The notes: generated by a model from the sequence alone, not told the origin. 60,584 nucleotides of DNA from Candidatus Limnocylindria bacterium (GCA_041494645.1 JBGQBD010000002.1:1-60584); one strand, 5' to 3'; shown: positions 7,079 through 60,584, counted from the stretch's first letter. A program made the numbers and translations.

Positions 7079-10062
<2,984 letters not shown>

Positions 10063-12013: not shown

Positions 12014-12068
12014 CCGAGCTGGCCACCGGCCGAATTTCGGACGCCGCCCCCACGAGGCGCATGGCGTC

Positions 12069-13679
<1,611 letters not shown>

Positions 13680-13689: not shown

Positions 13690-14948
<1,259 letters not shown>

Positions 14949-14952
<4 letters not shown>

Positions 14953-29382: not shown

Positions 29383-29491
29383 TCGGGAGCGGGTCGCGGG
29401 TACACTTGAACTGATCGGTAGACGATCGGCATCCGTCCGGCCGCCGGCCGATGAGCGCGCCGCTGGCGGCGCCAGTCAGTTCGAGGCCCGC

Positions 29492-32449
<2,958 letters not shown>

Positions 32450-33158: not shown

Positions 33159-34250
33159 ATGCCCGAGCTGCCCGAAGTCGAGACGATAGCCCGCGACCTG
33201 CGCGGCCTGGTGACGGGCGCGCGAGTCGTCGGGGTCGGCTGCAACTGGCCTCCGACGCTGCGCAGCCACGAACCGGAGGCCTTCGCCGCGGCAGTGGCCG
33301 GGCGCGAGATCCGAGGTGTGGACCGGCGCGGAAAGCAGTTGCTGGTGTTGCTGGGGCCGGGGGTCGAGCCCGGAGCCGCCGACCCGGCCGTCCTGACGAT
33401 CCACCTCAAGATGACCGGCCAACTGTTCGTCGTGGAGGCGGGCGCCGCTCGGGACCGCCACGTTCATCTGGTACTGAGACTGGCCGACGGGCGCGAGCTC
33501 CGCTTCCGCGACATGCGCAAATTCGGGCGGATCGGGCTGTACAGGCGCGACGAGGCCACCGGCGAGCCGGTCGAGGGTGAGGCCGCAGGCGTCCTGGCCG
33601 CAGGCGCGGAGCCGCTCTCCGAGGACTTCACCGCGCGGCGTTTCGGCGAGCTGCTAGCCCGCCACCGCGGGCGGCTGAAGACGCTGCTGCTCAACCAGGA
33701 CTTCCTGGCTGGCGTCGGCAACATCTACGCCGACGAGTCTCTCTGGCGGGCCCGGCTCCACCCGCTGCGCGACGCCCGGTCGCTGAGGCGCGACGACGTC
33801 CGCCGGCTCCACGGGGCTCTGCGCGACGTCCTGGCGGAGGCGATCGAACGACGCGGCAGCTCGATCGACGACTACACCGCCCCCGAGGGCGACGGCTCGA
33901 TGCAGGAGCATCTCCAGGTGTACCAGCGAGCCGGCGAGCCGTGCCTGCGCTGCGGCCGGCCGATCCGGCGGATCGTCGTGGGCGGGCGCTCGACCCATTT
34001 CTGCAGCTGGTGTCAGCGGCTGCCGGCCGAGCAGAGGGAAGGGGCGGCGAGGCTGTTGCGGGGCGCGGATTGGGCCACGAAACGCAGGGGCCCGCGCTGG
34101 ACGGAGCTCGGCGGCGTAGGCGTCCTCGGTCGGACCAGGTCGGAAGAGGAACGCGCTCGGCGCGTGGCGGCCACGCGCAAGGCGGCCGCGACCCGCCGGG
34201 CGGCGGCCCGCGCCGGCGGGGTCGGCGCAACCGCGGGAGGGCCCGCCTGA
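33159..34250 (+). CDS. mutM: Formamidopyrimidine-DNA glycosylase (Fpg/MutM) with ~80-aa basic C-terminal extension
   Basis: Catalytic N-terminus MPELPEVE, H2TH region LLNQDFLAGVGNIYADESL and zinc finger CLRCG...HFCSWCQ. An Arg/Ala-rich tail follows. Confidence 0.9.
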   Translation: MPELPEVETIARDLRGLVTGARVVGVGCNWPPTLRSHEPEAFAAAVAGREIRGVDRRGKQLLVLLGPGVEPGAADPAVLTIHLKMTGQLFVVEAGAARDRHVHLVLRLADGRELRFRDMRKFGRIGLYRRDEATGEPVEGEAAGVLAAGAEPLSEDFTARRFGELLARHRGRLKTLLLNQDFLAGVGNIYADESLWRARLHPLRDARSLRRDDVRRLHGALRDVLAEAIERRGSSIDDYTAPEGDGSMQEHLQVYQRAGEPCLRCGRPIRRIVVGGRSTHFCSWCQRLPAEQREGAARLLRGADWATKRRGPRWTELGGVGVLGRTRSEEERARRVAATRKAAATRRAAARAGGVGATAGGPA

Positions 34251-39445: not shown

Positions 39446-39459
39446 GAACGGGCGTGCTA
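39446..39459. promoter_or_regulatory. SOS (LexA)-like box AGAAC-GGGC-GTGCT upstream of uvrB
   Basis: One mismatch to AGAAC-N4-GTTCT. It lies 16 nt upstream of the TATACT -10 hexamer (39476-39481), the same geometry as the uvrA box. Confidence 0.4.
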
Positions 39460-39507
39460 TTCTGGGTTGCGGCGGTATACTGCAGCTCCCACGCCGACGA
39501 GGTTTCT

Positions 39508-41892
39508 GTGCCCGACTTTCGGCTCGTTGCCGACTTCCAACCCACCGGCGACCAGCCCCAGGCGATCGATAAACTGAGCGAAGGCCTGGCCAAAGGCCTG
39601 CGCCATCAGACGCTGCTGGGCGCGACCGGAACCGGCAAGACATTCACGATCGCCAAGGCGATCGAGGCGCATCAGAAGCCCACCCTGGTCCTGGCCCATA
39701 ACAAGACGCTGGCCGCGCAACTGTACTCGGAGTTCCGCGAGTTCTTCCCGGACAACGCCGTCGAGTACTACGTCAGCTACTTCGACTACTACCAGCCCGA
39801 GGCGTACCTGCCCCGCTCGGACACCTACATCGAGAAGGACTCGAGCCGCAACGACGAGATCGACAAGCTCCGCCACGCGGCCACCAAGGCCCTCTTCGAA
39901 CGGCGCGACGTGATCATCGTGGCCAGCGTCAGCTGCATCTACGGCCTCGGCGCCCCGGTCGACTACGGGGCCACGATCCTGCGGCTGCGCGTCGGCGGGC
40001 AATACCGCCGCGACGCCGTGCTGCGACACCTGGTGGACCTGCAGTACCAGCGCAACGACGCCGCCCTGTCCCGGGCCCGGTTCCGCGTCCGCGGCGACAC
40101 CCTGGAGCTGATCCCAGCCGCGGAGGATCGCCTGGTGCGGGTGGAGTTCTTCGGCGACGAGGTGGAGCGGATCACGGACCTGGACCCCCTCACCGGTGAG
40201 CTGCTGGCCGAGCGGAAGGACCTCAACGTCTACCCGGCCACGCACTTCGTGACGCCGGCCGACAAGCTGATGGCCGCGGTCAAGGCGATCGGCGAGGAGA
40301 TGGAGGTCAGGGTCGCGGACCTGGAAGCTCAGGGGCGCGCCCTGGAGGCGGCCAGGCTTCGGCAGCGCACGACCTTCGACCTCGAGATGATGCGCGAGCT
40401 GGGCTACTGCACCGGCATCGAGAACTACTCGCGCCATCTCTCGGGGCGGGAAGCCGGGTCACGGCCGTGGACGCTGCTCGACTACTTCCCGCCGGACTGG
40501 CTCCTCGTCGTCGACGAGAGCCACATGTCGATCCCGCAGGTCGTGGGCATGTACAAGAACGACCGGACGCGCAAGGAGATCCTCGTCGACTTCGGCTTCC
40601 GCCTGCCATCGGCGCTGGATAACCGCCCGCTCACGTTCGAGGAGTTCGAGGCCAGCGTGAACCAGGCGGTATACATGAGTGCCACGCCGGGTCCATACGA
40701 GCTGGAACGAAGCCAGCAGGTCGTCGAGCAGCTCATTCGACCAACCGGCGTGGTAGATCCACACATAACCGTCAAGCCGACGGAGGGGCAGATAGACGAC
40801 CTGCTCGACCTCATACGTGGACGCGTGGAACGCGGCGAAAGATCGATCGTTACAACGCTCACAAAGAAGATGGCCGAAGACCTGGCCGACTACCTGCACG
40901 AGCTGGGCGTGAAGGTCCAGTACCTGCATTCCGAAGTCGACACGCTGGAGCGCGTCCAGATCCTACGAGACCTCAGGCTGGGCGTATTTGACGTGATCGT
41001 CGGCATCAACCTGCTGCGTGAAGGGATCGACCTGCCCGAAGTCACGCTCGTTGCGATTCTCGATGCGGACAAGGAGGGATTCCTGCGCAGCGCCTGGTCG
41101 CTCGTGCAGATGATCGGTCGGGCGGCGCGTAACATCGGCGGCGAAGTCGTCATGTACGCCGACAACATGACCGACTCGATGAGGGCGGCGATCGGCGAGA
41201 CGAACCGCCGGCGCGCGGTCCAGGAGAAGTACAACCTGGATCACGGTATTCAGCCGGTCACGGTCGTGAAGGGGATCCGCGACATCAACGATCGCCTGCG
41301 AGCCGTGGCCGAGGCGCACGGGACCTACGCCACGGCGCCTGGCCAGGAACGTGCCTTCACAGAGATGGCCAAGGAGCAGGTCGAGAAGCTCGTCCGCCAG
41401 ATGGAGGCGGAGATGCGTCAGGCCGCCCGGGACCTGGAGTTCGAGCGGGCGGCGGCGTTGCGCGACGAGATCCAGGAGATCCGGCTGCGCGTCCTGGACG
41501 AGGATGCGTCCGCGGCCGTGGCCCGGGCGGCGGAGCGAGCGGCCAGGGTCAGGCCGGACGGACCGGCCGGCGCGCGACCCGCCCCGGCCCGAGCTGGCCG
41601 GACGATCAAGCCCGTTCGCGACATCCGGCGCCGCGAGCGCGCCCTCCGCGACGGCGGGGGACTGGACGCGGCCGCGCTCGACGTGACGGAGGTGCGCGTG
41701 ATGGCGGCGACCGAAGCGGCCGACGACGCGACCGCGGCCACGGCGTCCGACTGGCTGCCGGGGATTCGCGACGAGCACGAGGACGACGGCTGGTCGGTCA
41801 AGTGGCTGGATCGGCCGATGTGGGACCATACCGTGACGCCGAACGTTATCAAGCGGACCGGGACGCGACCACCGGGCAGGCGGCGGAGGTAG
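39508..41892 (+). CDS. uvrB: Excinuclease ABC subunit B with ~130-aa C-terminal extension
   Basis: GDQPQAI, Walker [13 protein letters not shown] box [11 protein letters not shown], helicase motif VI and UVR domain ([16 protein letters not shown]). GTG 39508 has GACGAGG upstream. The tail after the UVR domain ends [37 protein letters not shown]. Confidence 0.95.
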
Positions 41893-45328: not shown

Positions 45329-46360
45329 GTGAGCATTCCTACGCTCGAAGTAGTTGCTCGAGCCGCCGGTGTCTCGCGCGCGACCGTATCTCGGGTCGTG
45401 AATGGGAGCCCCACTGTCAGGATCGAATCCCGGCAGTCGGTCGAGCGGGCGATCGCCCAGCTCGGGTATGTCCCGAATCGGGCTGCTCGCACTCTCGTAA
45501 CTCGTCGGAATGACTCGATCGGCGTGGTGATTGCCGAGCCGAGCGGACGCATCTTCGGCGACCCGTACTTTGCGGAGGTTTTGCGGGGTATCAGCGCCGG
45601 CCTGGCCGCGCGCAACGTTGCGCTGGTCCTGGTCATGTCGCAGTCTCCTGAGGAGGAGCGCCAGGCGGAGCGCTACCTCACCGGTGGCCACGTCGATGGC
45701 GTGATCCTGTTTTCGCTGCACGGTGATGACCCACTCCCGCAGCACCTTAAGTCGCATGGCATACCGGTCGTCGTGGGCGGTGAGCCGCCCCACGGAGCCC
45801 GGGTCAGTTATGTCGACAACGACAACCACGGCGGCGCTATCGCGGCCGTGAACCACCTTATTGAGCAGGGGCGGACCCGGATCGCCACGATCACCGGTCC
45901 GCTGGACATGCCGGCCGCAATCACGCGCCGGCTGGGCTTCCTCGAAGCAATCCGGGCCGCCGGGCGGACGCCGGATGCGGATCTCGAGGAAAGTGGCGGA
46001 TTCACCCGTGAGGGTGGTCAGCGCGCCATGGAGGTCTTGCTCCAGCGGTGCCCCGATATCGATGCGGTATTCGCCGCGTCGGACCTGATGGCTGCAGGAG
46101 CGCTGTCGGCGCTGTACGCGGCCGGCAGGAGAGTGCCCGAGGACGTCGCGGTCGTCGGCTTCGACGACTCGATCATTGCCCTCTCGACCCAGCCTGCTCT
46201 TTCCAGCGTGCACCAGTCAATGGAGGTGACGGGTCTCGAACTCGCCAACGTCCTGCTCCAGACGATCGACGCGCGGGAACAGGTGGTCCGCCATGTCGTC
46301 CTGGAAACCGAGCTCATCGTCAGGCAATCGAGTGGAGGGCCGCCGACAGGGAAGAGCTGA
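45329..46360 (+). CDS. LacI family transcriptional regulator
   Basis: N-terminal HTH IPTLEVVARAAGVSRATVSRVVNG and a periplasmic-binding-fold effector domain. AGGAGG lies 8 nt upstream of GTG 45329. Confidence 0.9.
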   Translation: MSIPTLEVVARAAGVSRATVSRVVNGSPTVRIESRQSVERAIAQLGYVPNRAARTLVTRRNDSIGVVIAEPSGRIFGDPYFAEVLRGISAGLAARNVALVLVMSQSPEEERQAERYLTGGHVDGVILFSLHGDDPLPQHLKSHGIPVVVGGEPPHGARVSYVDNDNHGGAIAAVNHLIEQGRTRIATITGPLDMPAAITRRLGFLEAIRAAGRTPDADLEESGGFTREGGQRAMEVLLQRCPDIDAVFAASDLMAAGALSALYAAGRRVPEDVAVVGFDDSIIALSTQPALSSVHQSMEVTGLELANVLLQTIDAREQVVRHVVLETELIVRQSSGGPPTGKS

Positions 46361-46425: not shown

Positions 46426-47964
46426 ATGGTCAGGAGAGGTTTCACCCGGTTTGCAGCCCTAGCTTCGGTGGCCGCGCTCGCGGCCAGCGCGTGCACGGGC
46501 GCGGCCGCAACAACAGCGCCCTCGACGGGCGCAGCAACGCCAAGCGCGCCGCCTCCGCAAGTGACACCCGCGACAACCGCTGGGGGCGGCCAGATCGTCA
46601 GCGTTAACGGCGTGAACCACGTCGTCGTTCAATGGTACGTTGGCCTCGGATCTGGCACCAACCCGTCGCAGATCACGGTGGAGCAGAAGGTGGTCAGCGA
46701 CTTCAACGCGTTGCAGGACAAGACACCTACCGGCACGAAGGGTATGCCGATCCTGCTCTCGCTGAACATTGTCCAGAACACCACCGCGACCGACATCCTC
46801 AAGACCCAGCTGGCCGCCAACAATGCGCCGGACATCGTTGGCCCGGTTGGCGTCAAGGGTCGCGCCGCATTCCAGGGCGTGTGGGCTGACATCACCCCGC
46901 TGGCCAAGACGGCCGGCTTCGACTTCAGCGCATATGACCCCAACCTCCTCAAGCAGTTGAGCACCAACGGCGTCCTGGATGGCTTCCCGTATGCCGTCTA
47001 CCCGTCGATGATCTTCTTCAACAAAGACCTCTTCGATGAGGCCAAGCTCCCGTACCCGCCGCAGAAGGTGGGCGACAAGTACACCATGCCTGACGGCACG
47101 AAGGTCGACTGGACCTGGGACACCGTCCGCAAGCTCGCCATGCTCCTGTCCGTTGACAATAAGGGCAAGGACGCGACCCAGGCCGGCTTCGATCCGACCA
47201 ATCAGGTGCAATTCGGCTTCGACTTCATGTGGAGCGAAGGCCGCCGAATGGGCTCCGACTTCGGCAACGGCGGTTTCGTTGCTGCGGACGGCAAGACGGC
47301 TCAGTTCCCGGATGCCTGGAAGGCCGCGTGGACCTGGTATTACAACGGCATCTGGACTGACCATTTCATCGCCAATACCACGCAGGAGAACTCCACCCTC
47401 CTGGCCACCGGCAACCCGCCGTCCTCCGGCCATGTTGCTATGGCCCAGATGTTCCAGTGGTACGACTGCTGCATGGCGGCGACCAGCCCCAGCAAGACCA
47501 TCAAGAAGTGGGACGTCGCCATCCAGCCGAGCTACAACGGCACGATTAGCGCTCCGATGGACCTGGACGTGTTCAGCATCACCAAAGCCTCTAAGGATGC
47601 GCAGGATGCGTTCACGGCTCTGGCCTACATCGCCGGCCGCGGCGACCTCTCGGCCACGTACGGTGGCATCCCGCTCGTCGGCGATCAACTCACGTACTAC
47701 CACAAGTACATTGACGCGATGCTGAAGCCCGAGTTCCCCGAAATCTACGCCAACGGCGGCTTGATCAACTGGCAAGTCCCGATCGACATGGAGAAGTACG
47801 CTCCGGCGATTCACCACGAAGCGGCAATGCCCAACTACGTCAAGTCAATGGACGACTACAGCAAGATCTGGACGACTCTTGGGACCACCAAGGGCCTTGA
47901 CATGAACAAGGTCTTCACGGACGTGACCACGGCACTGCAGACCGACTTCAGCGCGGCCCCGTAG
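46426..47964 (+). CDS. Carbohydrate ABC transporter substrate-binding lipoprotein (family 1 SBP, large 512-aa form)
   Basis: Lipobox LAASAC and a Thr/Ala/Pro linker. The overall pattern and its position before two sugar permease genes support the call. GGAAGGGAG lies upstream. Confidence 0.8.
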   Translation: MVRRGFTRFAALASVAALAASACTGAAATTAPSTGAATPSAPPPQVTPATTAGGGQIVSVNGVNHVVVQWYVGLGSGTNPSQITVEQKVVSDFNALQDKTPTGTKGMPILLSLNIVQNTTATDILKTQLAANNAPDIVGPVGVKGRAAFQGVWADITPLAKTAGFDFSAYDPNLLKQLSTNGVLDGFPYAVYPSMIFFNKDLFDEAKLPYPPQKVGDKYTMPDGTKVDWTWDTVRKLAMLLSVDNKGKDATQAGFDPTNQVQFGFDFMWSEGRRMGSDFGNGGFVAADGKTAQFPDAWKAAWTWYYNGIWTDHFIANTTQENSTLLATGNPPSSGHVAMAQMFQWYDCCMAATSPSKTIKKWDVAIQPSYNGTISAPMDLDVFSITKASKDAQDAFTALAYIAGRGDLSATYGGIPLVGDQLTYYHKYIDAMLKPEFPEIYANGGLINWQVPIDMEKYAPAIHHEAAMPNYVKSMDDYSKIWTTLGTTKGLDMNKVFTDVTTALQTDFSAAP

Positions 47965-48059: not shown

Positions 48060-49025
48060 ATGGTGATCGTCGAAGACAACGAGTCGGTTCACGCCCCTCC
48101 ACCCAGAAGGATGAGCCTTGCCCGTCGCGAGACACTGATGGGCCTCGCCTTCCTGTCGCCGTGGCTCATCGGCCTGGTGGTGTTCACCGCGCTGCCGATC
48201 GTAGCCTCCCTGGTGCTTTCGTTCACGGACTTCAACCTCCTCCATCCGGCAGACTTCCGGTTCATCGGGCTGGACAACTACACCCGGATGTGGAACGAAT
48301 TGATGAATGACGGGGCCGCCGGCAAGTCGCTGGGTGTCACGGCCAGATTTGCGCTGATGTCGGTCCCGGTGACGATCGTCCTGGCGCTCGGTGTGGCGCT
48401 GCTGGTCAACCGGAAGCTTCTCGCCGGCAAGCCCGTCTTCAGGACGCTGTTCTTCATGCCCGTGCTAATCCCGCTCGTAGCAAGCACCATCGTGTGGCAA
48501 GGATTCCTGAACGGCAGCACCGGCTGGTTGGGGCAGATCCTGCGCTCTTTCGGACTTCCCTCGCCGGACTGGTTCAACGATCCGTCCTGGGCGCTTCCGG
48601 GGCTCGTTCTTCTTGGTACCTGGGGCATCGGGAACATGACGCTGATCTTCCTGGCCGGCCTGCAGGGAGTGCCGACCGAGCTGTACGAGGCCGTCAAAAT
48701 CGACGGCGGCGGACCCTGGGCTCGATTCCGCCATGTGACGCTGCCGATGATCTCGCCGGTCCTCTTCTACAACATCCTGATCAGCATCATCGGAGTGTCG
48801 CAGTACTTCACCCAGGCTTATGTCCTCGACCCGGGGTCGAATGGAAACCCTGGCGGCTCGACGTACTTCTACAACCTGAACCTGTACAAGGAAGGCTGGT
48901 CCTACAACCAGATGGGCTTTGCCTCGGCGCTCGCCTGGCTCATGATGCTCATCGTCGTGGTCGCAGCGCTCGTGTTGTTCCGTACGTCGGCACGCTGGGT
49001 GTTCTACGCCGGAGGTGACCGATGA
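48060..49025 (+). CDS. Carbohydrate ABC transporter permease (MalF/UgpA-like)
   Basis: Six hydrophobic helices and an EAA-type loop (LYEAVKIDGGGPWARFRHVTLPM). GGAG lies upstream of ATG 48060. ATG 48111 is an alternative start. Confidence 0.85.
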   Translation: MVIVEDNESVHAPPPRRMSLARRETLMGLAFLSPWLIGLVVFTALPIVASLVLSFTDFNLLHPADFRFIGLDNYTRMWNELMNDGAAGKSLGVTARFALMSVPVTIVLALGVALLVNRKLLAGKPVFRTLFFMPVLIPLVASTIVWQGFLNGSTGWLGQILRSFGLPSPDWFNDPSWALPGLVLLGTWGIGNMTLIFLAGLQGVPTELYEAVKIDGGGPWARFRHVTLPMISPVLFYNILISIIGVSQYFTQAYVLDPGSNGNPGGSTYFYNLNLYKEGWSYNQMGFASALAWLMMLIVVVAALVLFRTSARWVFYAGGDR

Positions 49026-50113
49026 CCGGGAACGCATTGTCGCTTCCGCTGGCCAGGAGCGGGCGCAGACGGTCGCCCCGAGCGCGTGCGATCAGGTTGG
49101 GGATCTCCAGGCTCGGCGTGACGTTGTTCACCGCCTCGATGGCGATGATCTTCCTGCTGCCGCTCGTCTACATGCTGCTGACTTCGTTCAAAGACAGCAC
49201 CCAGATGACCGCGTTGAACGCACCGTTGTGGCCCGCTACGCAGCAGATATACACGGCCGCCGACGGCCAGACGTACACTCTCTATGAAGTTCCGACGGCC
49301 AGTGGCGTCCAGGGTCTCGCGCTGGAGAAGCCCGGGCGAGTCACGAGCACCTTCATCGACCCCAAGACGGGGCAAGAGGTCGAGTGGCAGGGCAACTGGC
49401 GCGGCCTGAGCCCAGTGTGGTCGCTCACCGTCAGTTTCGACAACTTCTCCACGGTGTTGGACGTCCTCAACTTCCCAATGCTGTTGAGAAATACCCTGGT
49501 AGTTTCCGTTCTCGGAACGATTGGCGCGGTCAGTTCGGCCGTCCTTGTCGCTTTCGGCTTCGCTCGGTTCAGGATCCCGGGCAAGAACGGCCTCTTCCTT
49601 GTCTTGATCATGACGATCATGCTGCCATTCCAGGTCACTCTGATCCCGCAGTACATCGCCTTCCTGCAGATTGGCTGGGTCGGCACATTGTTACCGCTGA
49701 TAGTGCCAACCTTCTTCGCCAACGCGTACAACGTCTTCCTGCTGAGGCAGTACTTCTTGACTCTGCCTCGAGAGCTGGACGAGGCTGCTCAGATGGATGG
49801 CGCCAGCCCGCTTCGGATCCTGTGGTCGGTGATCATTCCTCAGGCGTGGCCGGCGATCATCGCCGTGTCTTTGTTTCACTTCTTCTTCTCATGGAACGAC
49901 TTCTTCGTACCTCTGATATATCTGTCGGGACATGCCGACCTCTTCACGATGACCGTGGGCCTGCAGGCCTTCAGCGCCACCTACGCTCGTGCGGGCAGTG
50001 GCACCCTGACCCAGACCGCAGCTCTCCTGGCGATGCTTCTGCCTGTAGCGATCTTCTTCGTCGCCCAGCGGGCGTTCATGCGAGGCGTGGTCATCTCTGG
50101 CGTCGAGAAGTAG
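49022..50113 (+). CDS. Carbohydrate ABC transporter permease (MalG/UgpE-like) with enlarged first external loop
   Basis: EAA loop LDEAAQMDGASPLRILWSVIIPQ. GGAGGTG lies upstream. ATG 49022 overlaps the previous stop (ATGA). Confidence 0.85.
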   Translation: MTGNALSLPLARSGRRRSPRARAIRLGISRLGVTLFTASMAMIFLLPLVYMLLTSFKDSTQMTALNAPLWPATQQIYTAADGQTYTLYEVPTASGVQGLALEKPGRVTSTFIDPKTGQEVEWQGNWRGLSPVWSLTVSFDNFSTVLDVLNFPMLLRNTLVVSVLGTIGAVSSAVLVAFGFARFRIPGKNGLFLVLIMTIMLPFQVTLIPQYIAFLQIGWVGTLLPLIVPTFFANAYNVFLLRQYFLTLPRELDEAAQMDGASPLRILWSVIIPQAWPAIIAVSLFHFFFSWNDFFVPLIYLSGHADLFTMTVGLQAFSATYARAGSGTLTQTAALLAMLLPVAIFFVAQRAFMRGVVISGVEK

Positions 50114-50119
50114 GTGTCC

Positions 50120-52537
50120 ATGAACACGAGACAGGGACCCGAGGTCCTCTCGGGTCCGGCTCCCTGTGCCTGGCGGCGGCCGATCGGGCTCCCCTACGAC
50201 GGCCCCGAAACGTCCAGGCAGGACGTCGATCCGCCGCTCGTCGACGATGGTCCCTGGGGTGGCGTGCCACTGGGCGGTCTGGGTGCCGGAAGCATCGGGC
50301 GAACCCATCGCGGGGACTTCGCCCGATGGCACCTGGACGTGGGCCGCCACCGCTTCGAGACCATCGCGGCAGACCAGTTCTCGGTGTACGTGGCCAGGGG
50401 CGGGGCCAATTCGGCCCACGTGCTCTCGACGATACGTCCCGAGACGCTTCGGAGCTGGAACTGGGACCTGCCGGAGGGAGCCGGCATGTACCACGGCCTG
50501 TTCCCATATGCCTGGTTCGAATATGACTGGGCTGAACTTCCCGTGCGCCTGATGCAGCGGCAGTTCAGCCCGGTCATTCCTGGGAACCACCGCGAGAGCA
50601 GCTACCCCGTCGGTATCTTCGAGTGGCAGATCGAGAACCCGAGCCCGGATTCGGTGATTGTCGGGCTGATGTTCAGCTGGCTGAATGACATCGGCCGAGA
50701 CCGTGGACAGGACCGCCGGGGCGGCCATCGAAACGTTTCGCTCCGCAAAGACGGCCTGGCCGGGGTCCTGCTTCAGGGGCCTTCGGACGTTGCCGACGCG
50801 CCCTGGAACGGCAGCTTCGCGATGATGGCTGGCGAAGAACCCGGCGTCCAGCTCACGACCTGGGATCGGTTCTTGGCCGACGAGGGGTCGGACGTATGGG
50901 CGGACTTTGCGGCCGACGGCCGGCTGGGCGACGTCGTCGACGGCCGGCCCAGCCAGCCGGGCGAGGCTATCGGAGCAGCCCTTGCTGCGACGGTCGAGCT
51001 CGCTCCAGGCGAGACGAAGCGCGTGTCGTTCGTGCTCGTCTGGGATCTGCCCGTCGTTGAGTTCGGGTCCGGCACGTGCTGGTACAAGCGCTACACGCGG
51101 TTCTTCGGCCGCAGCGGCGCCAACGCCTGGGCCATCGGCGCCGAGGCTCTCGAGAGGCGCTCTGAGTGGTCGTCCGCTATAGACGCCTGGCAGGCGCCGA
51201 TCCTGGCCGATTCCGCGCGCCCTTCCTGGTACAAGGGGGCGCTCTTCAACGAGCTCTATTACCTCGTCGACGGCGGCACGGTCTGGACCGATGGCGAGCC
51301 GTTCCACAGGCCCCAGTCTGCCGGTGGCACCGCAGTCCTCCTGTCCGCAAAGCAGTCGATGGACGGCGGGGCGACTGAGTCGCTCGGTCATTTCGCCGTC
51401 CTGGAGTGCTACGACTACGCCTGTTACAACACCCTCGACGTCAACTTCTACGCGTCGTGGGCGCTGCTTCTGCTATGGCCTGACCTGGATGTCGGCGTCG
51501 TCAGGGATTTCGCGGCGACCGTGGATCTCGACGACCCGGAGATCGTCACCGTGGGCTGGAAGGGCACTCGCGCTCAGAGGAAACGGCGCGGCGCGATGCC
51601 GCACGACCTGGGTGGCCCGAGCGGAGACCCGTTCCTGCGTCCCAACATTTACAACTGGCGCGACATCAACATCTGGAAGGACTTGAACAGCAAGTTCGTC
51701 CTCCAGGTCTGGCGCGACGTCCTGCTTGTGCCGGCTCCGGACCTCGCTCGCGAGACGTGGCCGGCTGTCGTGCAGGCAATGGATTACCTCGGCCGATTCG
51801 ACCGAGACGACGATGGGCTGCCCGAGCACGATGGGCTGCCCGACCAGACTTACGATAGCTGGTCGATGCTCGGGCCGAGCGCCTACAGCGGGGCGCTCTG
51901 GCTGGCCGCCCTTCGCGCGGCCATCCGGTTGGGCACGATGGTCGGCGACTCAGCGAGCGTCGCCCGGTTCCGGCAATTGCACGATCGCGGCAGCGCCGCC
52001 TTCGAGGCCAAGCTCTGGAACGGCCGCTGCTATCGCTTCGATACGAGCGGCGAAGATTCCTCGGCTTCGATCATGGCTGACCAGCTGGCCGGTCAGTGGT
52101 ACGCGGATGCGACCGGACTTGGCGACCTGGCTTCGCCGGAGCGCATCCTGACGGCGTTGCGCACTGTTTACGAGTCGAACGTCCTTGGGTTCGGCGGCGG
52201 CGAGATGGGTGCGGTCAACGGGATCAGACCCGACGGTTCGATCGACGAGTCGACCGAGCAGTCGGCCGAGAGCTGGACCGGCACCACCTATGCCCTGGCG
52301 GCTTTCATGATCGGCCGCGGCCTCGTCCAAGAGGGCTGGCGCACGGCCCATGGAACGTTCGCCGTCACCTACGGCCGAGGGTTGTGGTTCCGGACGCCGG
52401 AGGCGTACCTGCAGGACGGTCGGTATCGGGCCGCCATGTACCTGCGGCCGCTGGCGATCTGGGCGATAGAGCACGCCCTTCGTCAGAATGGAGGGCATGG
52501 GATCTCGGCTGGTCGACGCCCGTCGGCCGACGCGTAG
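50120..52537 (+). CDS. GH116 family beta-glucosidase (GBA2-type glucosylceramidase fold), cytoplasmic
   Basis: N-domain GGVPLGGLGAGSIGRTHRGDFARWHL...LFPYAWFEY and C-terminal (alpha/alpha)6 DUF608-type region (DGLPDQTYDSWSMLGPSAYSGALWLAAL). ATG 50120 follows AGGTG. GTG 50114 is an alternative start. Confidence 0.8.
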   Translation: MNTRQGPEVLSGPAPCAWRRPIGLPYDGPETSRQDVDPPLVDDGPWGGVPLGGLGAGSIGRTHRGDFARWHLDVGRHRFETIAADQFSVYVARGGANSAHVLSTIRPETLRSWNWDLPEGAGMYHGLFPYAWFEYDWAELPVRLMQRQFSPVIPGNHRESSYPVGIFEWQIENPSPDSVIVGLMFSWLNDIGRDRGQDRRGGHRNVSLRKDGLAGVLLQGPSDVADAPWNGSFAMMAGEEPGVQLTTWDRFLADEGSDVWADFAADGRLGDVVDGRPSQPGEAIGAALAATVELAPGETKRVSFVLVWDLPVVEFGSGTCWYKRYTRFFGRSGANAWAIGAEALERRSEWSSAIDAWQAPILADSARPSWYKGALFNELYYLVDGGTVWTDGEPFHRPQSAGGTAVLLSAKQSMDGGATESLGHFAVLECYDYACYNTLDVNFYASWALLLLWPDLDVGVVRDFAATVDLDDPEIVTVGWKGTRAQRKRRGAMPHDLGGPSGDPFLRPNIYNWRDINIWKDLNSKFVLQVWRDVLLVPAPDLARETWPAVVQAMDYLGRFDRDDDGLPEHDGLPDQTYDSWSMLGPSAYSGALWLAALRAAIRLGTMVGDSASVARFRQLHDRGSAAFEAKLWNGRCYRFDTSGEDSSASIMADQLAGQWYADATGLGDLASPERILTALRTVYESNVLGFGGGEMGAVNGIRPDGSIDESTEQSAESWTGTTYALAAFMIGRGLVQEGWRTAHGTFAVTYGRGLWFRTPEAYLQDGRYRAAMYLRPLAIWAIEHALRQNGGHGISAGRRPSADA

Positions 52538-52586: not shown

Positions 52587-55500
52587 ATGACGACTGAGAG
52601 TGGTCCGGTGGACGGTTTGGCCCAGCACCCCGCGAAAGCACCAGCCTGGCCCGACTTCGTGACTCTGGCCGGGCAGCGGTATGCCTGCATCCACGACGTC
52701 GACCGTCTCGCGCCATTTCTGATGAGCATCGTGAGCGACAGCGATGCCTGGCTCTTCGTCGGCAGCAACTCGCCCTTCACGGCCGGGCGCGTGGACCCCG
52801 ACGGCGCGATGTTCCCGTACCAGAACGTCGACAAGCTGCTGCGCCATGCCGACGGAAGCGGATCTCTGAGCGCCTTCCGCGTTCGCCGCGGCGGTTCGGG
52901 CCCCTGGGTCTGGGAGCCGTGGCGTTCCGATTCCCATGCGCTCCCGGTCACCCGCAACCTTTACAAGCACGTCCTGGGTACGAACGTGCTCTTCGAGGAG
53001 ATCAACCGTGAGTTGGGGCTTCGCTTCACCTGGAGCCTCAGCACGTGCGCGCAGTTCGGCCTCGTCCGGCATGCGGTCCTGGAGAACATCGGCTCCGAGC
53101 CGGTTCGCGTGGACTATCTCGACGGGTTCCAGATGCTGCTGCCACCCGGCGTGGGCGAGGAGTCGTACGCTCGCATGAGCTACCTGGCAGGTGCCTACAT
53201 GCGCCACGAGGTCCTGCCCGACGTCCCGCTGGCGATCTACACCCTGAACTCGGCGATCGAAGACAGGCCCCTGCCATACGAGTCCCTGCGCGCAACGTGC
53301 GCCTGGTCGGTCGGCCATCTCCACCCAGACATCATCCTTTCGGACCGGCATCTGCAAGCATTCCGGGCGGGCCAGAAGATTCCAGTGGAGATGGAGCTGA
53401 GGGGTGACTTCGGGTCGTACCTGGTGGCTGATCGCGTCGAGCTCGAGCCCGGCCAGCAGCACAGCTGGTTCAGCGTCGCCGACACCCGTCTCGACCACGC
53501 CGGCCTGGTCCTGCTGCGCGAACGGCTCGCCACGCCAAACCTGCTCGAGGCCGAGCTTCGGGCGGCCGTTTCGGCCGATCGGGAGAGCCTGCGCCGAGTG
53601 GTCGCCGCGGCCGATGGGCTGCAGCACACGGCGGACGAGGCGGCCACCGTCCACCACTTCACCAGTGCCCTCTTCAACTGCCTGCGTGGCGGGACCTTTC
53701 TCGACTCGTACCGATTCCCGCGTCGCGACCTCGACACGTTCCTGCGTGCTCAGAACGCTTCGCTGCACACCCGGGTGGAAGGCTGGCTGGCCACCCTGCC
53801 AGAGACGATCTCGCTCGACTCGCTCCGGAGCGCCATGGAGGCGACGGGTGATCCCCAACTCAGACGGCTGTGCGGCTCGTATCTGCCGGTCATCTACAGC
53901 CGACGCCATGGCGACCCGAGCCGACCCTGGAACCGCTTCTCGATCCACGTCAGGGGCGAGAACGGGGAGCCGGTGTACGGCTACGAAGGCAACTGGCGCG
54001 ACATCTTCCAGAACTGGGAGGCGCTGGCCCAGAGCTTCCCCGGCTTCCTCGAGCAGATGCTAGCGGTCTTCCTGAACGGGTCGACGGCGGACGGCTACAA
54101 CCCGTACCGGATCAGCCGGGACGGAGGCATCGACTGGGAGGTCGGCGACCCGAACGACCCGTGGAGCCACATCGGCTACTGGGGCGACCACCAGATCGTT
54201 TACCTGCTTCGGCTGCTCGAAAGCGAGGAGCGATTCTGGCCCGGCGCCCTGGCGTCGCGGCTCAATCGACGTGAGTATGCCTACGCCAACGTGCCGTATC
54301 GGATCGCCGGGCTGGACGCTACTCTGGCCGATCCGCGCACCACGATCACTTTCGACGTGACGTTGCATCGCCGACTCCTGGCCGCCGCCGGTCAGGTCGG
54401 GGCGGACGCGAAGCTGGTCGCAGACTCGAACGGCGACGTCCTGCTCGTATCCCTGGCCGAGAAGTTGCTGGTGCCGCTGCTGGTCAAGCTCAGCAACTTC
54501 GTCCCCGACGGCGGGACGTGGCTGAACACGCAGCGCCCGGAATGGAACGACGCCAACAACGCGCTGGCGGGTTGGGGCCTGTCGATGGTGACGGTCGCCC
54601 ATGCGCGGCGCTACCTGCGCTTCTGCGAGAAGCTCTTCGCAGGGTCCGAGCCGGTGGAGCTGTCCGAGCCGGTCGCGGCCCTGCTGGAGCGGCTCACCGC
54701 GATCTACGGCGCCGCTCCCGAGACGTTCGACGACGTCTCGCGATACGAGTTCCTCGTGGCGGCCGGGCGGGCCGGCGAGGAGCACCGTCGCCTGGTCTAC
54801 GCCAACGAGCTCGGAACCCGTCGGGCGGTACCGATGGCCGCCCTGCGCGAGCTCATCGTTCACGCCCTGCCAGTCCTCGAGCGGGCTATCGTCTCGAACC
54901 GCCGCGGCGACGGCCTGTACCACGGCTACAACCTGCTGCACGTCGAGGCCAGTCAGGCCAGCATCACCCATCTCTTCCCGATGCTCGAGGGTCAGGCAGC
55001 GGTGCTCGCGTCCGGGCTGCTGGCGCCGACCGAGGAGCTTGCCGTCCTGCGCGCACTTCGCTCCAGCGAGCTCTATCGGGCCGACCAGAACAGCTATGTC
55101 CTCTACCCCGACCTGGCCCTGCCATCCTTCCTGAGCCGCAACACGATCACCTCCGTGCCGCCGCTGGACGACCCGCGGATCTTCGTCCGCGACGCCCGCG
55201 GCCGGTGGCACTTCCAGGCGGACCTGCGAAACGCCAACGACGTGGCCGGTCGCCTGGACACCATGAACGTGGACGGGCGAGTCCGCGAGGCCACTCTCGC
55301 CCTCTGGGAGAAGACCTTCCGGCACCGCGAGTTCACCGGCCGAAGCCGCACCTTCTTCATGTTTGAAGGCCTCGGCAGCATCTACTGGCACATGGTCGCC
55401 AAGCTGCTGGTGTCGGTTCAAGAGTGCGCCGTGAGGGCTCTTGAGCCGGAGATTGGAGAGGTCGACCTCGAAGCCGCTGCGGCGCTGGCTGACGTCTACG

Positions 55501-56072
55501 ACGACGTGCGCGACGGCCTCGGCTTCCGCAAGCCGGCCGAGGTCCATGGCGCCTTCCCGTACGATCCCTACTCGCACACGCCGCAGCACCGTGGCGCACA
55601 GCAACCGGGCATGACAGGCCTCGTCAAAGAGGAGGTCCTGGTCCGTTGGGGCGAGCTTGGCGTGCAGGTTCGGGGAGGCAGGCTGCGGTTTGCGCCAAGA
55701 CTGCTGCACCGGGCAGAGTTCGAGGCAGCGCCGTACCTGTTCAACTACGTCGACATCGCTGGCCAGGATCGGTCGTGGGAGCTGCCCGCGGGCAGCCTGG
55801 CCTTCACGTTCTGCGGTACTCCGGTCTGCTACGAGCTGGCCGACCGGGCCTCCGTCGTCGTGGATCGTGTGGCCGGCCCGAGCGAACTGATCGTCGGCGA
55901 CGAGCTACCCCGTGCGGTGAGCGAGTCGGTCTTTGCCCGGGAGGGCTCGGTCGTGCGGCTGATCGTCCGCGTGCCACAGGAGGGGCTCCCCCTCCTGGCC
56001 GCTGAAGCGCTCACAACGGCGCAGAGCGACCTCAACGTCGTGCCTGTCGCCAATCGAAGTCGCAAGGAGTAG
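52587..56072 (+). CDS. Large (1161 aa) uncharacterised cytoplasmic protein; candidate divergent GH94/GH149/GH161-like glycoside phosphorylase
   Basis: A long ORF with strong GC3 codon bias and no signal peptide, flanked by GH116 and GH3. Motifs are NWRDIFQNWE (R471/D472, nt 53997-54002), RPEWNDANNALAGWG (D655, nt 54549-54551) and PYSHTPQHRGAQQPGMTG (H997, nt 55575-55577). Family assignment is inference only. Confidence 0.7.
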   Translation: MTTESGPVDGLAQHPAKAPAWPDFVTLAGQRYACIHDVDRLAPFLMSIVSDSDAWLFVGSNSPFTAGRVDPDGAMFPYQNVDKLLRHADGSGSLSAFRVRRGGSGPWVWEPWRSDSHALPVTRNLYKHVLGTNVLFEEINRELGLRFTWSLSTCAQFGLVRHAVLENIGSEPVRVDYLDGFQMLLPPGVGEESYARMSYLAGAYMRHEVLPDVPLAIYTLNSAIEDRPLPYESLRATCAWSVGHLHPDIILSDRHLQAFRAGQKIPVEMELRGDFGSYLVADRVELEPGQQHSWFSVADTRLDHAGLVLLRERLATPNLLEAELRAAVSADRESLRRVVAAADGLQHTADEAATVHHFTSALFNCLRGGTFLDSYRFPRRDLDTFLRAQNASLHTRVEGWLATLPETISLDSLRSAMEATGDPQLRRLCGSYLPVIYSRRHGDPSRPWNRFSIHVRGENGEPVYGYEGNWRDIFQNWEALAQSFPGFLEQMLAVFLNGSTADGYNPYRISRDGGIDWEVGDPNDPWSHIGYWGDHQIVYLLRLLESEERFWPGALASRLNRREYAYANVPYRIAGLDATLADPRTTITFDVTLHRRLLAAAGQVGADAKLVADSNGDVLLVSLAEKLLVPLLVKLSNFVPDGGTWLNTQRPEWNDANNALAGWGLSMVTVAHARRYLRFCEKLFAGSEPVELSEPVAALLERLTAIYGAAPETFDDVSRYEFLVAAGRAGEEHRRLVYANELGTRRAVPMAALRELIVHALPVLERAIVSNRRGDGLYHGYNLLHVEASQASITHLFPMLEGQAAVLASGLLAPTEELAVLRALRSSELYRADQNSYVLYPDLALPSFLSRNTITSVPPLDDPRIFVRDARGRWHFQADLRNANDVAGRLDTMNVDGRVREATLALWEKTFRHREFTGRSRTFFMFEGLGSIYWHMVAKLLVSVQECAVRALEPEIGEVDLEAAAALADVYDDVRDGLGFRKPAEVHGAFPYDPYSHTPQHRGAQQPGMTGLVKEEVLVRWGELGVQVRGGRLRFAPRLLHRAEFEAAPYLFNYVDIAGQDRSWELPAGSLAFTFCGTPVCYELADRASVVVDRVAGPSELIVGDELPRAVSESVFAREGSVVRLIVRVPQEGLPLLAAEALTTAQSDLNVVPVANRSRKE

Positions 56073-56074
56073 CA

Positions 56075-58030
56075 ATGCCAGTCTCGTATCCGCGTCGCCC
56101 CAGGCGGCCTCGCCGATGGATCCGTCGCCTCGCTGCACTAGCAGTCGTAGCCTTCGTGGCCGCTTGCGGCAACTCCACCGCCACGGGCACACCCCCTTCC
56201 TCGATCTCGGCGGCGTCCGGGTCACCATCCTCCGGGCGTCCCTGGATGGACGCCACCAAATCCGTGGATGATCGCGTGGCGGCGTTGCTGGGTCAGATGA
56301 CCCTGGCCGAGAAGATCGGCCAGATGACCCAGGCCGAGAAGAACGCCATCAATCCGGCGAACTCGGGCGCCTACAACCTCGGCTCGATCCTCAGCGGCGG
56401 CGGCGGATACCCCGATCAAAACACCCCGCAGGCCTGGTACGACATGGTCAACGCGTATCAGCAGACGGCTCTCGGGACCCGTCTGAGCATCCCGATCATC
56501 TACGGCGTCGACGCTGTGCATGGGCACAACAACGTCGAAGGCGCGACCATCTTCCCGCAGAACGTCGGTATGGGTGCCACGAACGACCCCGCGCTCGTGC
56601 AGCAGGCCTGCGCCGCGACGGCTCTCGAGATGAATGCCACCGGGATTCGATGGGATTTCGGTCCGGTCGTCGCGGTCCCCCAGGACATTCGCTGGGGCCG
56701 CACGTACGAGGGCTACAGTGAGAACACCGACCTCGTCTCCAAGCTTGGGGCGGCCTGTATAGAGGGCCTACAGGGTTCCGGCCTGAGCGCCGAGAACACC
56801 TCGGCTGCAACGGCGAAGCACTTCATTGGCGATGGCGGAACGGCCTTTGGCAGCTCCACGGCGAACGGCCCAACCGGCCCCTACCTGCTCGATCAGGGCG
56901 TCGACCAGATGGACGAGGCCACGCTGCTCAAGCTCTTCCTGCCGCCGTACAAGGCGGCTGTCGAAAGTGGCGCCAGGATCGTCATGACCTCTTACTCGAG
57001 CACGAGCGCTGGCAAGGTTCACGGCGATAAGCATCTGATCACCGACATCCTCAAGGTCCAGCTGGCCTTCACCGGTTTCGTCGTCTCCGACTGGGGCGGC
57101 ATCGACCAGGTCGTACCCGGTCACTACTCCGCCTCGGTCGCGCAGTCGATCAACGCCGGCATAGACATGGTCATGGTTCCCACTGACTACGTTCGGTTCA
57201 TCACCACGATGACGTCGCTGGTGCAGGCGGGGACGATCTCGCAGGCTCGGATCGACGATGCCGTCACCCGGATCCTCCGGGTGAAGTTCGAGATGGGCCT
57301 CTTCGAGAATCCGATGCCCGCCGCGGGCAAGACCTCCGAGGTAGGGTCGGATGCCGATCGCGCGATCGCCCGCCAGGCCGTCGCCGAATCGGCCGTCCTG
57401 CTCAAGACGAGCGCGAACGTCCTGCCGATCCCGGCGTCGGGAAAGAAGGTCCTCCTGGCCGGTCAGGGCGCCGACGACATCGGCATCCAGTCCGGCGGTT
57501 GGACGATCACCTGGCAGGGTTCTGCGGGACAGATTACGTCCGGCTCGACGCTCCAGGGAGTTCTGAAGGCCAAGCTCGGCGACAACCTCACCTATGACCG
57601 CAATGCCGCATTCCCGGCTGGCACGAAGGCCGACATCGGGATCGTCGTCGTGGCCGAGCGGCCCTATGCCGAGGGTGTCGGCGACTCCTCGACGCTGGCT
57701 TTGCCGAATGAGGACGTGGCGCTCCTGGCGAAGATGCGGCCGCTCGTGAACAAGCTCGTCGTCGTGGTCATCTCGGGTCGGCCCATGGTCCTGGGCGACG
57801 TTGCGTCGGCGGACGCGGTCGTGGAGGCCTGGCTTCCCGGAACCGAGGCGGCCGGCCTCGCGGACGTCCTGCTCGGCGACAAGCCATTCGTCGGGACCAC
57901 GCCGTATACCTGGCCGAAGACGGCAGGGGATGCGCCCAGAGTCGGCAAGTCCGCTTGCGCTGGGGCGGTTTACCCGGTCGGCTACGGTCTGGACGCCGCG
58001 GGCAAGCTACTGGGCCCGGCTGCCTGCTAG
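56075..58030 (+). CDS. GH3 family beta-glucosidase / exo-beta-glucanase, lipoprotein
   Basis: Lipobox [18 protein letters not shown], the nucleophile context [11 protein letters not shown] and a C-terminal alpha/beta sandwich. AAGGAG lies 6 nt upstream of the ATG, which is 2 nt after the previous stop. Confidence 0.9.
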
Positions 58031-58131: not shown

Positions 58132-58137
58132 TACAAT
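58132..58137 (+). promoter_or_regulatory. -10 hexamer TACAAT positioned for a leaderless uvrA mRNA
   Basis: TACAAT is followed by 8 nt and then ATG 58146. No SD. Confidence 0.45.
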
Positions 58138-58145
58138 GGCGGCCT

Positions 58146-60584
58146 ATGCCGCAGGAACAGCTGGTCGTTCGCGGGGCCCGCGAGCACAACCTCAAGAACA
58201 TCACCGTCTCGATGCCGCGCGACCGGCTGGTCGTCATCACCGGCCTGTCCGGATCGGGCAAGAGCAGCCTCGCCTTCGATACGATCTATGCCGAGGGTCA
58301 GCGCCGCTACGTCGAGAGCCTGTCCGCCTACGCCCGGCAGTTCCTCGGCGAGATGCAGAAGCCGGACGTCGACCAGATCGACGGTCTGAGCCCCGCGATC
58401 TCGATCGACCAGAAGGGCGCCAGCCGGAACCCGCGGTCGACGGTCGGAACCGTGACCGAGATCTACGACCACCTGCGCCTCCTATTCGCCCGGATCGGCC
58501 ATCCGCACTGCCCAACGTGCGGTCGCGAGATCCAGCGCCAGAGCGTCCAGCAGATCGTCGACCAGATCTACGACCTGCCCGAGGGGACGCGGCTGATGGT
58601 GCTGGGCCCCGTCATCAAGGACCGCAAGACGGAGGGGGATCGCGTCTTCGACCAGATCCGCCGCGGAGGCTTCGCCCGCGTGCGCGTGAATGGCGAGCTG
58701 ATGGACCTGGCGGAGACGCGGCAGCTGGACAAATACAAGCGCCACACGATCGAGGTGGTCGTGGATCGGTTCGTGGTGCGCCACGGGGATGCCGAAGGAG
58801 GCCCGGACGGCGACCCGAGGCCGGACGCGAGCCGCCTGGCGGACAGCGTGGAGACGGCGTTGCGGCTCGGCGAGGGCGTCGTCCAGATTGCCCCGGCGCC
58901 CCGCGACGGCGAGGCGCCCGAATTCGAGGAACGACGCTACAGCGAGCGGTACAGCTGCCCTTATGACGGCACAACCGTGGACGAGCTCGAGCCTCGAAGC
59001 TTCAGCTTCAACTCACCCCACGGGGCCTGCCCGTCCTGCACGGGGATAGGCAGCCGTCTCGAGATAGACCCGGACCGGGTCATCCCCAACAAGAACCTGT
59101 CGCTGGCCGGCGGGGCCCTGGTGCCGTGGGGCCGCCTGCCGATGGAGAACTCCTGGCACGGCAAGATCATGGAAGCCGTCTGTCGGGAACACGGCTGGGA
59201 CTACAACGCTCCCGTGAAGAACCTGCCGCCGGAAGCGCTCGAGTACGTCCTGTACGCGGATCGCGGCGAGCGGGTCGTGATCGGCTACCGCCATGAGCGG
59301 GGTGAGAACACCTACGGCGCCACGTTCGAGGGTGTCGTTCCCAACCTCGAGCGCCGCTTCCGCGAGACCGAATCGGACTTCATCAAGTCGGAGCTCGAGC
59401 GCTACATGGTCGCCCGGCCGTGTCCCAGCTGCGAAGGCAAGCGCCTCAAGCCGGAGATCCTCGCCGTCACGGTCGACGGCCAGAACATCTGGCAGGTGTC
59501 GACGCTGTCGATCACGGCCGCCTGCGAATGGGTCGCCCGACTGCCCGACCGGCTGACCGAGCGCGAGCAGACGATCGCCCGGCAGGTCCTCAAGGAGATC
59601 TCGGCCAGGCTCGGCTTCCTGCTCGACGTCGGGCTGGACTATCTGACCCTCGATCGAACGAGCCAGACGCTGTCGGGCGGTGAAGCGCAGCGCATCCGAT
59701 TGGCCACCCAGATCGGCTCCAGCCTGATGGGCGTCCTCTACATCCTCGACGAACCTTCGATCGGACTTCACCAGCGCGACAACGCCAAGCTGATCGCCAC
59801 CCTCACCCGCCTGCGCGACCTGGGCAACACGGTCCTCGTCGTGGAGCACGACGAGGAGACGATCCGGACGGCCGACTGGGTCATCGACATCGGGCCCGGG
59901 GCAGGGGAGCACGGCGGCGAGATCGTGGCTTCAGGGCCCCTGGAAACGATCCTGGCCGAGCCGCGGTCGATTACCGGCGCCTACCTGCGCGGCGAGCTGA
60001 CCGTTCCGATCCCGGACCGGAGACGCAAGGGAAGCGGCCAGTCCCTGTTCGTTCGGGGCGCCCGCGAGCACAACCTCAAGCACGTGGATGTGGCCTTCCC
60101 GCTGGGCTGCTTCGTCTCGGTCACGGGCGTGTCCGGTTCGGGCAAGAGCACGCTCGTCTCGGACGTTCTGTATCGGGCCCTGGCCCGCCAGCTGAGCGGT
60201 TCGCGCGAGAGGCCCGGCGACCACGACGCCATCGAGGGGATCGAGGCCATCGACAAGGTCATCGACATCGACCAGAGCCCGATCGGTCGAACGCCCCGCT
60301 CGAATCCGGCGACCTACACCGGCCTCTTCGCGCCGATCCGCGAGCTGTTCGCCGGCACCCAGGAGTCGCGTCTGCGCGGCTACAGGCCGGGCCGGTTCAG
60401 CTTCAACGTCAAGGGCGGCCGCTGCGAGCACTGCAAGGGCGACGGCATCCTCAAGATCGAGATGCAGTTCCTGCCGGACGTCCACGTCCAGTGCGAGGTG
60501 TGCAAGGGCAAGCGCTACAACCGCGAGGCTCTCGAGATCCATTACAAAGGCCGATCGATCGCCGACGTCCTTGAGATGACGATC
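58146..60584 (+). CDS. uvrA: Excinuclease ABC subunit A, N-terminal 813 aa; 3' end outside window
   Basis: Absent from the ORF track (no stop before the window end) but read directly. The sequence is [68 protein letters not shown]..., with zinc-finger Cys pairs, [12 protein letters not shown] and a second Walker [11 protein letters not shown]. The frame is open through 60584. Confidence 0.95.

Follow-up and report, generated by a model that had tools for sequence, protein, structure and literature searches.

A predicted cytoplasmic GH149 beta-1,3-glucan phosphorylase in a conserved beta-glucoside locus of Limnocylindrales-like Chloroflexota

Introduction

Glycoside hydrolase (GH) family GH149 was defined in 2018 and its structure was solved in 2019, and the family is now routinely counted among the carbohydrate-active enzymes (CAZymes) of laminarin-utilization loci in metagenome studies. 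EgP1 and Pro_7066, the two enzymes described in the GH149 papers, are both beta-1,3-glucan phosphorylases. According to the papers defining and solving the family (Kuhaudomlarp et al. 2018, 2019), the catalytic residue of Pro_7066 is D653, located in a W651-N652-D653 loop, while R470/D471 recognize the sugar 1-phosphate, E951 contacts the donor mimic, and H959 has been assigned to phosphate recognition. The same papers report that GH149 genes cluster with ATP-binding cassette (ABC) transporters, LacI regulators, and GH3 enzymes, and the so-called Type I clusters have been interpreted as scavenging short beta-1,3-gluco-oligosaccharides. Here, we describe a gene for a protein of 1161 amino acids (aa) at the centre of a beta-glucoside locus in a stretch of DNA of 60,584 nucleotides (nt) from Candidatus Limnocylindria bacterium (GCA_041494645.1 JBGQBD010000002.1:1-60584), called the window in the following.

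An earlier annotation of the window, made by a model from the DNA letters without database searches (the sequence-only reading), had left this protein unassigned and presented it as a candidate divergent glycoside phosphorylase. The analysis reported below indicates with high confidence that the open reading frame (ORF) encodes a cytoplasmic beta-1,3-glucan (laminaridextrin) phosphorylase of family GH149, which belongs to clan GH-Q.

Family assignment

A Pfam-A scan of the GH149 ORF returned no match, and it is because Pfam-A has no matching model that the protein looked unassigned; the blank reflects a missing model rather than novelty. The curated NCBIfam equivalog NF058639.1 (GH149_beta_1_3; "1,3-beta-D-glucan phosphorylase, GH149 family") matches the protein with 1275.9 bits at a cut-off of 1150, spanning residues 23-1129 and profile positions 8-1133/1134. 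In the PDB, the best match is the crystal structure of Pro_7066 (6HQ6/6HQ8; E = 6.8e-261, 871.7 bits). The alignment with 6HQ6 forms one colinear HMMER stretch (query 22-1129 versus chain 41-1169), in which the GH149-specific insert Dom 1 is aligned with a gap of only 2 residues. Other members of the clan gave fragmentary matches and no full-length similarity, namely GH94 9H8V (E = 1e-11, three short stretches) and GH161 9QQK (E = 4.2e-11). Homologues at E <= 1e-10 amount to at least 7985 database proteins (8000 candidates scored).

The 1161-aa protein is thus an ortholog of the known GH149 family from a Chloroflexota lineage, which is a sound annotation and no discovery. The sequence-only reading had the enzyme class right, as it proposed an inverting glycoside phosphorylase and named GH149 among three candidate families. 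Its description of the protein as unassigned and divergent does not hold for a sequence that exceeds a curated GH149 cut-off over its full length and aligns with 6HQ6 as described. It had also stated that a strong hit to a characterized GH family would make the protein known rather than novel, and such a hit is what the searches returned; neither a full-length match to a non-carbohydrate-active family nor a different fold was found.

Active site

Residues were transferred from Pro_7066 after correcting for a 19-residue tag that offsets the 6HQ6 chain from the numbering of the paper, with which the letters were right at 10 of the 10 named positions. Conservation was read from two alignments: one of 31 close relatives (54-86% identity) and one of 16 genome-derived homologues (41-54% identity) from Bacteroidota (Flavobacteriia), Gammaproteobacteria (Vibrionaceae, Alteromonadales), Verrucomicrobiota, Planctomycetota, Chloroflexota, and others.

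R471-D472 (53997..54002, +), the RD motif of the predicted -1 subsite, is aligned with R470/D471 of Pro_7066 and would recognize the sugar 1-phosphate. W653-N654-D655 (54543..54551, +), the WND catalytic loop, is aligned with W651/N652/D653, which makes D655 the predicted general acid. The stretch from E927 to H935 (in FEGLGSIYWH; 55365..55391, +) contains the putative donor-contacting glutamate E927, aligned with E951, and the putative phosphate-recognition histidine H935, which sits in SIYWHMV and is aligned with H959. R471/D472, W653/N654/D655, E927, and H935 are invariant in both alignments, and no published active-site position differs between the query protein and Pro_7066.

Three motifs had been picked out by eye in the sequence-only reading, and all of them were located: NWRDIFQNWE at residues 469-478, RPEWNDANNAL at 650-660, and YSHTPQHRGAQQPGMTG at 995-1011. 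The first two were well chosen, since the Arg-Asp pair R471/D472 corresponds to R470/D471 of Pro_7066 and the proposed acid D655 to its catalytic D653. The proposed phosphate-binding histidine H997 was misplaced, as the histidine assigned to phosphate in the GH94/GH149 literature maps to H935 instead. The third motif (55569..55619, +) is nevertheless an invariant segment among the 16 genome-derived homologues, in which S996, H997, Q1006, P1007, G1008, M1009, T1010, and G1011 are all unchanged, and it matches Pro_7066 save for four residues (aligned with query P994 and Q1000-R1002). Given its invariance throughout the family and its near identity in Pro_7066, the H997...Q1006...T1010-G1011 segment is surely important, as far as conservation can tell. 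A residue-level link between S996-H997...Q1006...T1010-G1011 and the GH94 phosphate site was not found with a sub-profile of residues 900-1045 (alignment A3), which matched only 6HQ6 in the PDB.

Fold

From the alignment of close relatives, an AlphaFold2 model of moderate confidence was obtained (mean predicted local distance difference test, pLDDT, 68.4; predicted template modeling score 0.62). In it, residues 21-302 and 1026-1130 form beta strands and residues 304-1024 form helices, a layout that agrees with the published GH149 domain boundaries mapped through the alignment, i.e., a beta-sandwich, a helical linker, an (alpha/alpha)6 barrel, and a jelly-roll. Foldseek searches of the PDB ranked GH149 6HQ6/6HQ8 first (E = 5.4e-74, template modeling score 0.56, 38% identity), followed by GH161 (E ~1e-25, 16% identity), the GH94 laminaribiose phosphorylase (~1e-16), and other GH94 enzymes (~1e-11, down to 1e-9). 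No non-CAZyme fold appeared among the top ranks.

Gene and reading frame

Direct reading of the sequence confirmed the ORF at 52587..56072 (+), which starts with ATG and comprises 1161 codons; an in-frame TGA at 52575-52577 makes a longer N-terminus impossible. The N-terminus lacks a hydrophobic segment, with a top Kyte-Doolittle mean of 1.22 for 19-residue spans that begin within residues 1-50, so the earlier claim of a cytoplasmic enzyme without signal peptide holds. The sole segment of the protein at or above 1.6 on the same scale covers residues 617-637, where a helix is predicted from residue 623, and it aligns inside Pro_7066's catalytic domain.

At the 3' end, the Shine-Dalgarno sequence AAGGAG of the following GH3 gene (56064..56069, +) occupies the last two sense codons (K-E) of the GH149 gene, just where it had been reported, and is followed by TAG, CA, and the GH3 ATG at 56075. 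The position of this Shine-Dalgarno sequence points to tight translational linkage between the two genes.

The GH149 gene opens with five codons (ATGACGACTGAGAG, 52587-52601) that recur out of frame 40 nt upstream as TTGACGACTGAGAG (52547-52561). A 16-codon ORF opens from the TTG of this upstream copy and closes within the start region of GH149. Two contigs carrying relatives of the locus (L081 and L084) have kept the copy, which could be a regulatory element or a chance occurrence. An assembly duplication was considered for this 13-nt repeat and rejected, because relatives have an intergenic region of the same length and retain the upstream copy.

The operon and its proposed pathway

The neighbours named in the sequence-only reading, namely GH116, GH3, LacI, and a sugar ABC importer, are all present and all lie on the + strand, and their association with the phosphorylase matches published GH149 gene clusters. 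The locus begins with a LacI-family transcriptional regulator (45329..46360, +; Pfam LacI helix-turn-helix and Peripla_BP_1/3/4), the likely repressor of the locus, which scores under every NCBIfam equivalog cut-off and whose position is conserved in the relatives L081-L084. Next follows the solute-binding protein (SBP) of the importer, a lipoprotein of 512 aa (46426..47964, +) with 84% identity to the protein at the same position in L081. The SBP itself has no Pfam or NCBIfam match at E <= 0.01; its L081 counterpart carries a precomputed match to PF13416 (SBP_bac_8), and a weak PDB match connects the query SBP to the sugar-binding lipoprotein UspC (E = 7e-6). Its N-terminus (MVRRGFTRFAALASVAALAASAC) has a hydrophobic segment at residues 9-29 and a lipobox-like cysteine. 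The protein is considered a divergent sugar SBP.

Two permeases complete the importer genes: permease 1 (MalF/UgpA-like; 48060..49025, +) and permease 2 (MalG/UgpE-like; 49022..50113, +), which overlap by 4 nt. Each matches PF00528 (BPD_transp_1) and the corresponding NCBIfam models (MalF/UgpA-like and UgpE/MalG-like, respectively), and each has six hydrophobic segments. The GH116 beta-glucosidase gene (50114..52537, +) precedes the GH149 gene. Its product matches PF12215 (E = 5.5e-94) and PF04685 (E = 4.2e-137) as well as 5bvu_A and related PDB entries, deposited as beta-glucosidase or glucosylceramidase (E = 2.7e-222, residues 19-787), and it is predicted to be cytoplasmic, with no hydrophobic segment at its N-terminus.

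The last gene encodes a GH3 exo-beta-glucan glucohydrolase (56075..58030, +; PF00933 and PF01915), whose PDB matches include 5m6g (E = 8.9e-152), the barley beta-D-glucan exohydrolase ExoI (1e-145), and the exo-1,3/1,4-beta-glucanase 3usz (1e-117). It carries an N-terminal lipoprotein signal with an Arg-rich n-region, a hydrophobic core, and Cys31, followed by a Ser/Thr/Pro-rich linker (56075-56240). The protein sequence of this N-terminus is conserved in L081 (13510-13845) and L084 (13510-13710), where it likewise follows directly on the GH149 stop. Because of this conserved lipoprotein-type N-terminus, the GH3 enzyme is most likely an exported lipoprotein acting outside the cell, and not a cytoplasmic partner. 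The gene calls on the L081 and L084 contigs start downstream and miss the signal, giving 528 or 595 aa instead of 651 aa. In L081, the GH3 gene appears to be split into ORFs of 111 aa and 528 aa, pointing to either a frameshift or an assembly error.

Limnocylindrales-like contigs whose GH149 relatives show 87% and 80% identity have a conserved gene order: LacI, SBP, permease, permease, GH116, GH149, and GH3. Upstream of the locus lie genes for a DinB-family protein, a major facilitator superfamily transporter, and AzlC, and downstream lies uvrA; in the relatives, the genes downstream of GH3 differ and encode an aldo-keto reductase or an ACT-domain protein. Neither a sigma-70-like promoter for the locus nor an operator for LacI was found, the sole inverted repeat being a weak one inside lacI. 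Terminator-like sites all fall inside genes and number 11, about twice the shuffled expectation of 6.2 (standard deviation 2.6).

From gene content and localization signals, the following pathway can be proposed. The exported GH3 lipoprotein would work on beta-glucan outside the cell, after which the SBP lipoprotein and both permeases would import beta-gluco-oligosaccharides, powered by an ATPase whose gene lies elsewhere. In the cytoplasm, GH149 would shorten them glucose by glucose, releasing glucose 1-phosphate; compared with hydrolysis followed by glucokinase, such phosphorolysis would save one ATP per glucose. GH116 may then clear residual disaccharides or non-beta-1,3 linkages, and the LacI-family regulator would control the operon.

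Proposed chemistry and substrate

By analogy with the characterized phosphorylases, phosphate would be positioned with the help of H935 (a role inferred from GH94 and GH149) and would attack C1 of the non-reducing-end glucose, held in a -1 subsite formed by R471, D472, W653, and E927. D655 would donate a proton to O3 of the following glucose, the leaving oxygen. The reaction, expected to be reversible, would yield alpha-D-glucose 1-phosphate and shorten the chain by one glucose.

Several points weigh against the assignment as a cytoplasmic beta-1,3-glucan phosphorylase or against the role proposed for it. Its beta-1,3 specificity is extrapolated at about 40% identity, no third characterized GH149 enzyme besides EgP1 and Pro_7066 was found in the searchable literature, and the Pro_7066 structure paper notes that no acceptor-bound GH149 structure defines the + subsites. 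The close clade is known from sequence only, and those relatives that bear a name are called "hypothetical protein". The AlphaFold2 pLDDT drops below 50 in the invariant loops 435-468, 649-664, 913-931, and 991-1010 (53890-53991, 54532-54579, 55324-55380, and 55558-55617), likely due to a shallow, closely related alignment and to a homodimer being modeled as a monomer. As the conserved motif loops are poorly predicted, the model was used for fold assignment only; convergence of the motifs on one pocket is suggested by the description of 6HQ6, an argument that is not independent of homology. At the level of the locus, no endo-beta-1,3-glucanase was found among the locus genes or the upstream and downstream genes adjoining it, and no ABC ATPase gene lies in or adjoins the locus (45329-58030). 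The importer must therefore borrow an ATPase encoded elsewhere, a situation likewise discussed in the GH161 cluster paper.

Two structural differences from Pro_7066 belong to the same list. Dom 2 is about 18 residues shorter in the query, and the surface oligosaccharide site of Pro_7066 (E990/Y993/E994) reads D969/D972/D973, from which the site is probably absent. The site is not family-defining, and the structure paper describes it as poorly conserved among bacterial members of GH149 that are more distant. Together with the identity of about 38-45% (38% in the Foldseek alignment), these differences are regarded as ordinary within-family variation.

It was also considered whether the protein is a GH149-fold phosphorylase with a shifted substrate, preferring beta-1,3/1,6-branched or mixed-linkage beta-1,3/1,4 oligosaccharides or another chain-length window over linear beta-1,3-gluco-oligosaccharides, which would reflect a soil or peat niche of the Chloroflexota host and the pairing with GH116. 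Such a shift would suit the identity of only about 40% to the sole structurally characterized GH149 member, the unconserved surface binding site and shorter Dom 2, and a GH116 partner that is mentioned neither in the published GH149 cluster types nor in the GH161 cluster paper; the chain-length kinetics of EgP1 and Pro_7066, moreover, already differ at 45% identity. We nevertheless regard it as unlikely, given that the curated equivalog cut-off is exceeded and that the -1 subsite and catalytic residues are all identical to those of Pro_7066. Furthermore, beta-1,3 specificity is common to both characterized enzymes, one from Euglena and one bacterial, and the best solved relatives of the GH3 partner are exo-beta-1,3/1,4-glucan hydrolases, which fits beta-1,3-containing glucans. 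For the clade at 54-87% identity as a whole, there is likewise a small chance of a preference for the branched beta-1,3/1,6 or mixed-linkage beta-1,3/1,4 oligosaccharides of fungal or plant cell walls; if true, this would be the first GH149 activity not directed at linear beta-1,3-gluco-oligosaccharides.

Loss of phosphate use within the GH149 fold, giving a hydrolase or transglycosylase, is very improbable. GH65 offers a precedent, being documented with both phosphorylases and hydrolases (PMC8626586), and the clade is represented by sequences alone; against this, H935, the RD pair, and the WND loop show strict conservation both in this protein and throughout the family, and no published active-site position is substituted relative to Pro_7066. 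Finally, the idea, raised in the sequence-only reading, of a new CAZy family separate from GH94, GH149, and GH161 with this protein as its founder has the lack of a Pfam-A model in its favour and is scarcely credible, as it is refuted by the full-length NF058639.1 match above cut-off, by the 6HQ6 match at E = 6.8e-261, and by thousands of homologues, including Chloroflexi members listed in the 2018 family-defining paper.

Host, distribution, and the rest of the window

The window has a G+C content of 68.6%. The nearest named relative of the GH149 protein (87% identity) belongs to a metagenome-assembled genome of a "Candidatus Limnocylindrales bacterium" (Chloroflexota), where it is annotated as hypothetical protein, and the clade at 54-87% identity is found mostly in metagenome contigs. 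In the relatives at 80-87% identity whose loci were read, GH149 is fixed in a GH116/GH149/exported-GH3 operon. More broadly, at least 599 stretches with GH149 relatives occur in a collection of species-representative genomes. As Chloroflexi sequences are already present in the supplement of the 2018 family-defining paper, the host phylum is not new for GH149.

Outside the sugar locus, the window contains housekeeping genes of a chromosome, with DNA replication and repair functions densely represented in the region 3254-41892. The genes read in the window encode PcrA/UvrD (3254..6046), LigA (7900..10062), GatA (11724..13679), an aminotransferase (13690..14952), GatB (14949..16430), DnaE (20914..24855), tRNA-Leu(CAA) (27711..27797, -), PolA (28958..32449), an ABC-F protein (33941..36307), and UvrB (39454..41892). 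The PolA ORF, which is also about 1160 aa long, was checked as a possible GH149 paralogue and rejected, as it encodes DNA polymerase I. The uvrA gene (58053-60584), in which the Walker A region was read, is cut off by the 3' end of the window; an ORF of 276 aa at 58136..58966 is an alternative frame of uvrA and was rejected as a gene. Between uvrB and uvrA, the query genome thus has the sugar locus together with a few small genes.

Significance

Beyond correct annotation, the GH149 assignment has little significance. It exposes an annotation gap, in that the named close relatives are still listed as "hypothetical protein" although the family has both a crystal structure and a curated equivalog in NCBIfam. 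In ecological terms, a conserved operon for the uptake and phosphorolysis of beta-1,3-glucan oligosaccharides can be assigned to Limnocylindrales-like Chloroflexota, which is a modest addition to the known diet of this poorly cultured group. For biocatalysis, the protein provides a further GH149 sequence, whose lineage is distant from those of both characterized enzymes, and is a candidate for beta-1,3-glucan synthesis.

Comparison with known systems

Among the related families of clan GH-Q, GH94 (laminaribiose phosphorylase PsLBP 6GGY, cellobiose phosphorylase, and cellodextrin phosphorylase) shares the RD/WND/His constellation with the query and was recovered by Foldseek at E = 1e-16 to 1e-9. 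GH94 enzymes, however, lack Dom 1 and Dom 2, their sequence similarity to the query is marginal, and their beta-1,3-active members, the laminaribiose phosphorylases, act only on the disaccharide. GH161 (PapP; 9GY9, 9QQK) has the same overall fold and reaction type, and its gene neighbourhood likewise contains a beta-glucosidase and an ABC transporter. It is nonetheless a different family with marginal sequence similarity to the query, and it is unable to use glucose as an acceptor or to cleave a disaccharide.

Within GH149, EgP1 from Euglena gracilis, compared by its published description, has the same catalytic and phosphate residues (D660, W658, R477/D478, and H960), but it is a eukaryotic enzyme with a targeting peptide and a preference for short acceptors. 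Pro_7066 and the query protein are similar in length (1161 aa versus 1175 residues for the tagged 6HQ6 chain), the alignment is colinear over the four domains as well as Dom 1 and Dom 2, and the RD, WND, Glu, and His residues are identical. Pro_7066 likewise has no signal peptide and is likewise encoded in a carbohydrate-utilization gene cluster. Its host is a probable Flavobacteria species, whereas the query host is a high-GC, Limnocylindrales-like member of the Chloroflexota.

With regard to gene content, the locus resembles the Type I GH149 clusters of Proteobacteria (ABC transporter, LacI or AraC, and GH149), with which it has in common the cytoplasmic GH149 enzyme, an ABC importer, a LacI regulator, and the lack of an endo-laminarinase. 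The Type I transporter, however, is of the Opp/Dpp type (COG0747 SBP, COG0601/1173 permeases, and two ATPases), whereas the query locus encodes a MalF/MalG-type system with two permeases and no ATPase gene. In addition to the genes of the Type I clusters, it comprises a predicted cytoplasmic GH116 beta-glucosidase and a GH3 lipoprotein that is most likely exported.

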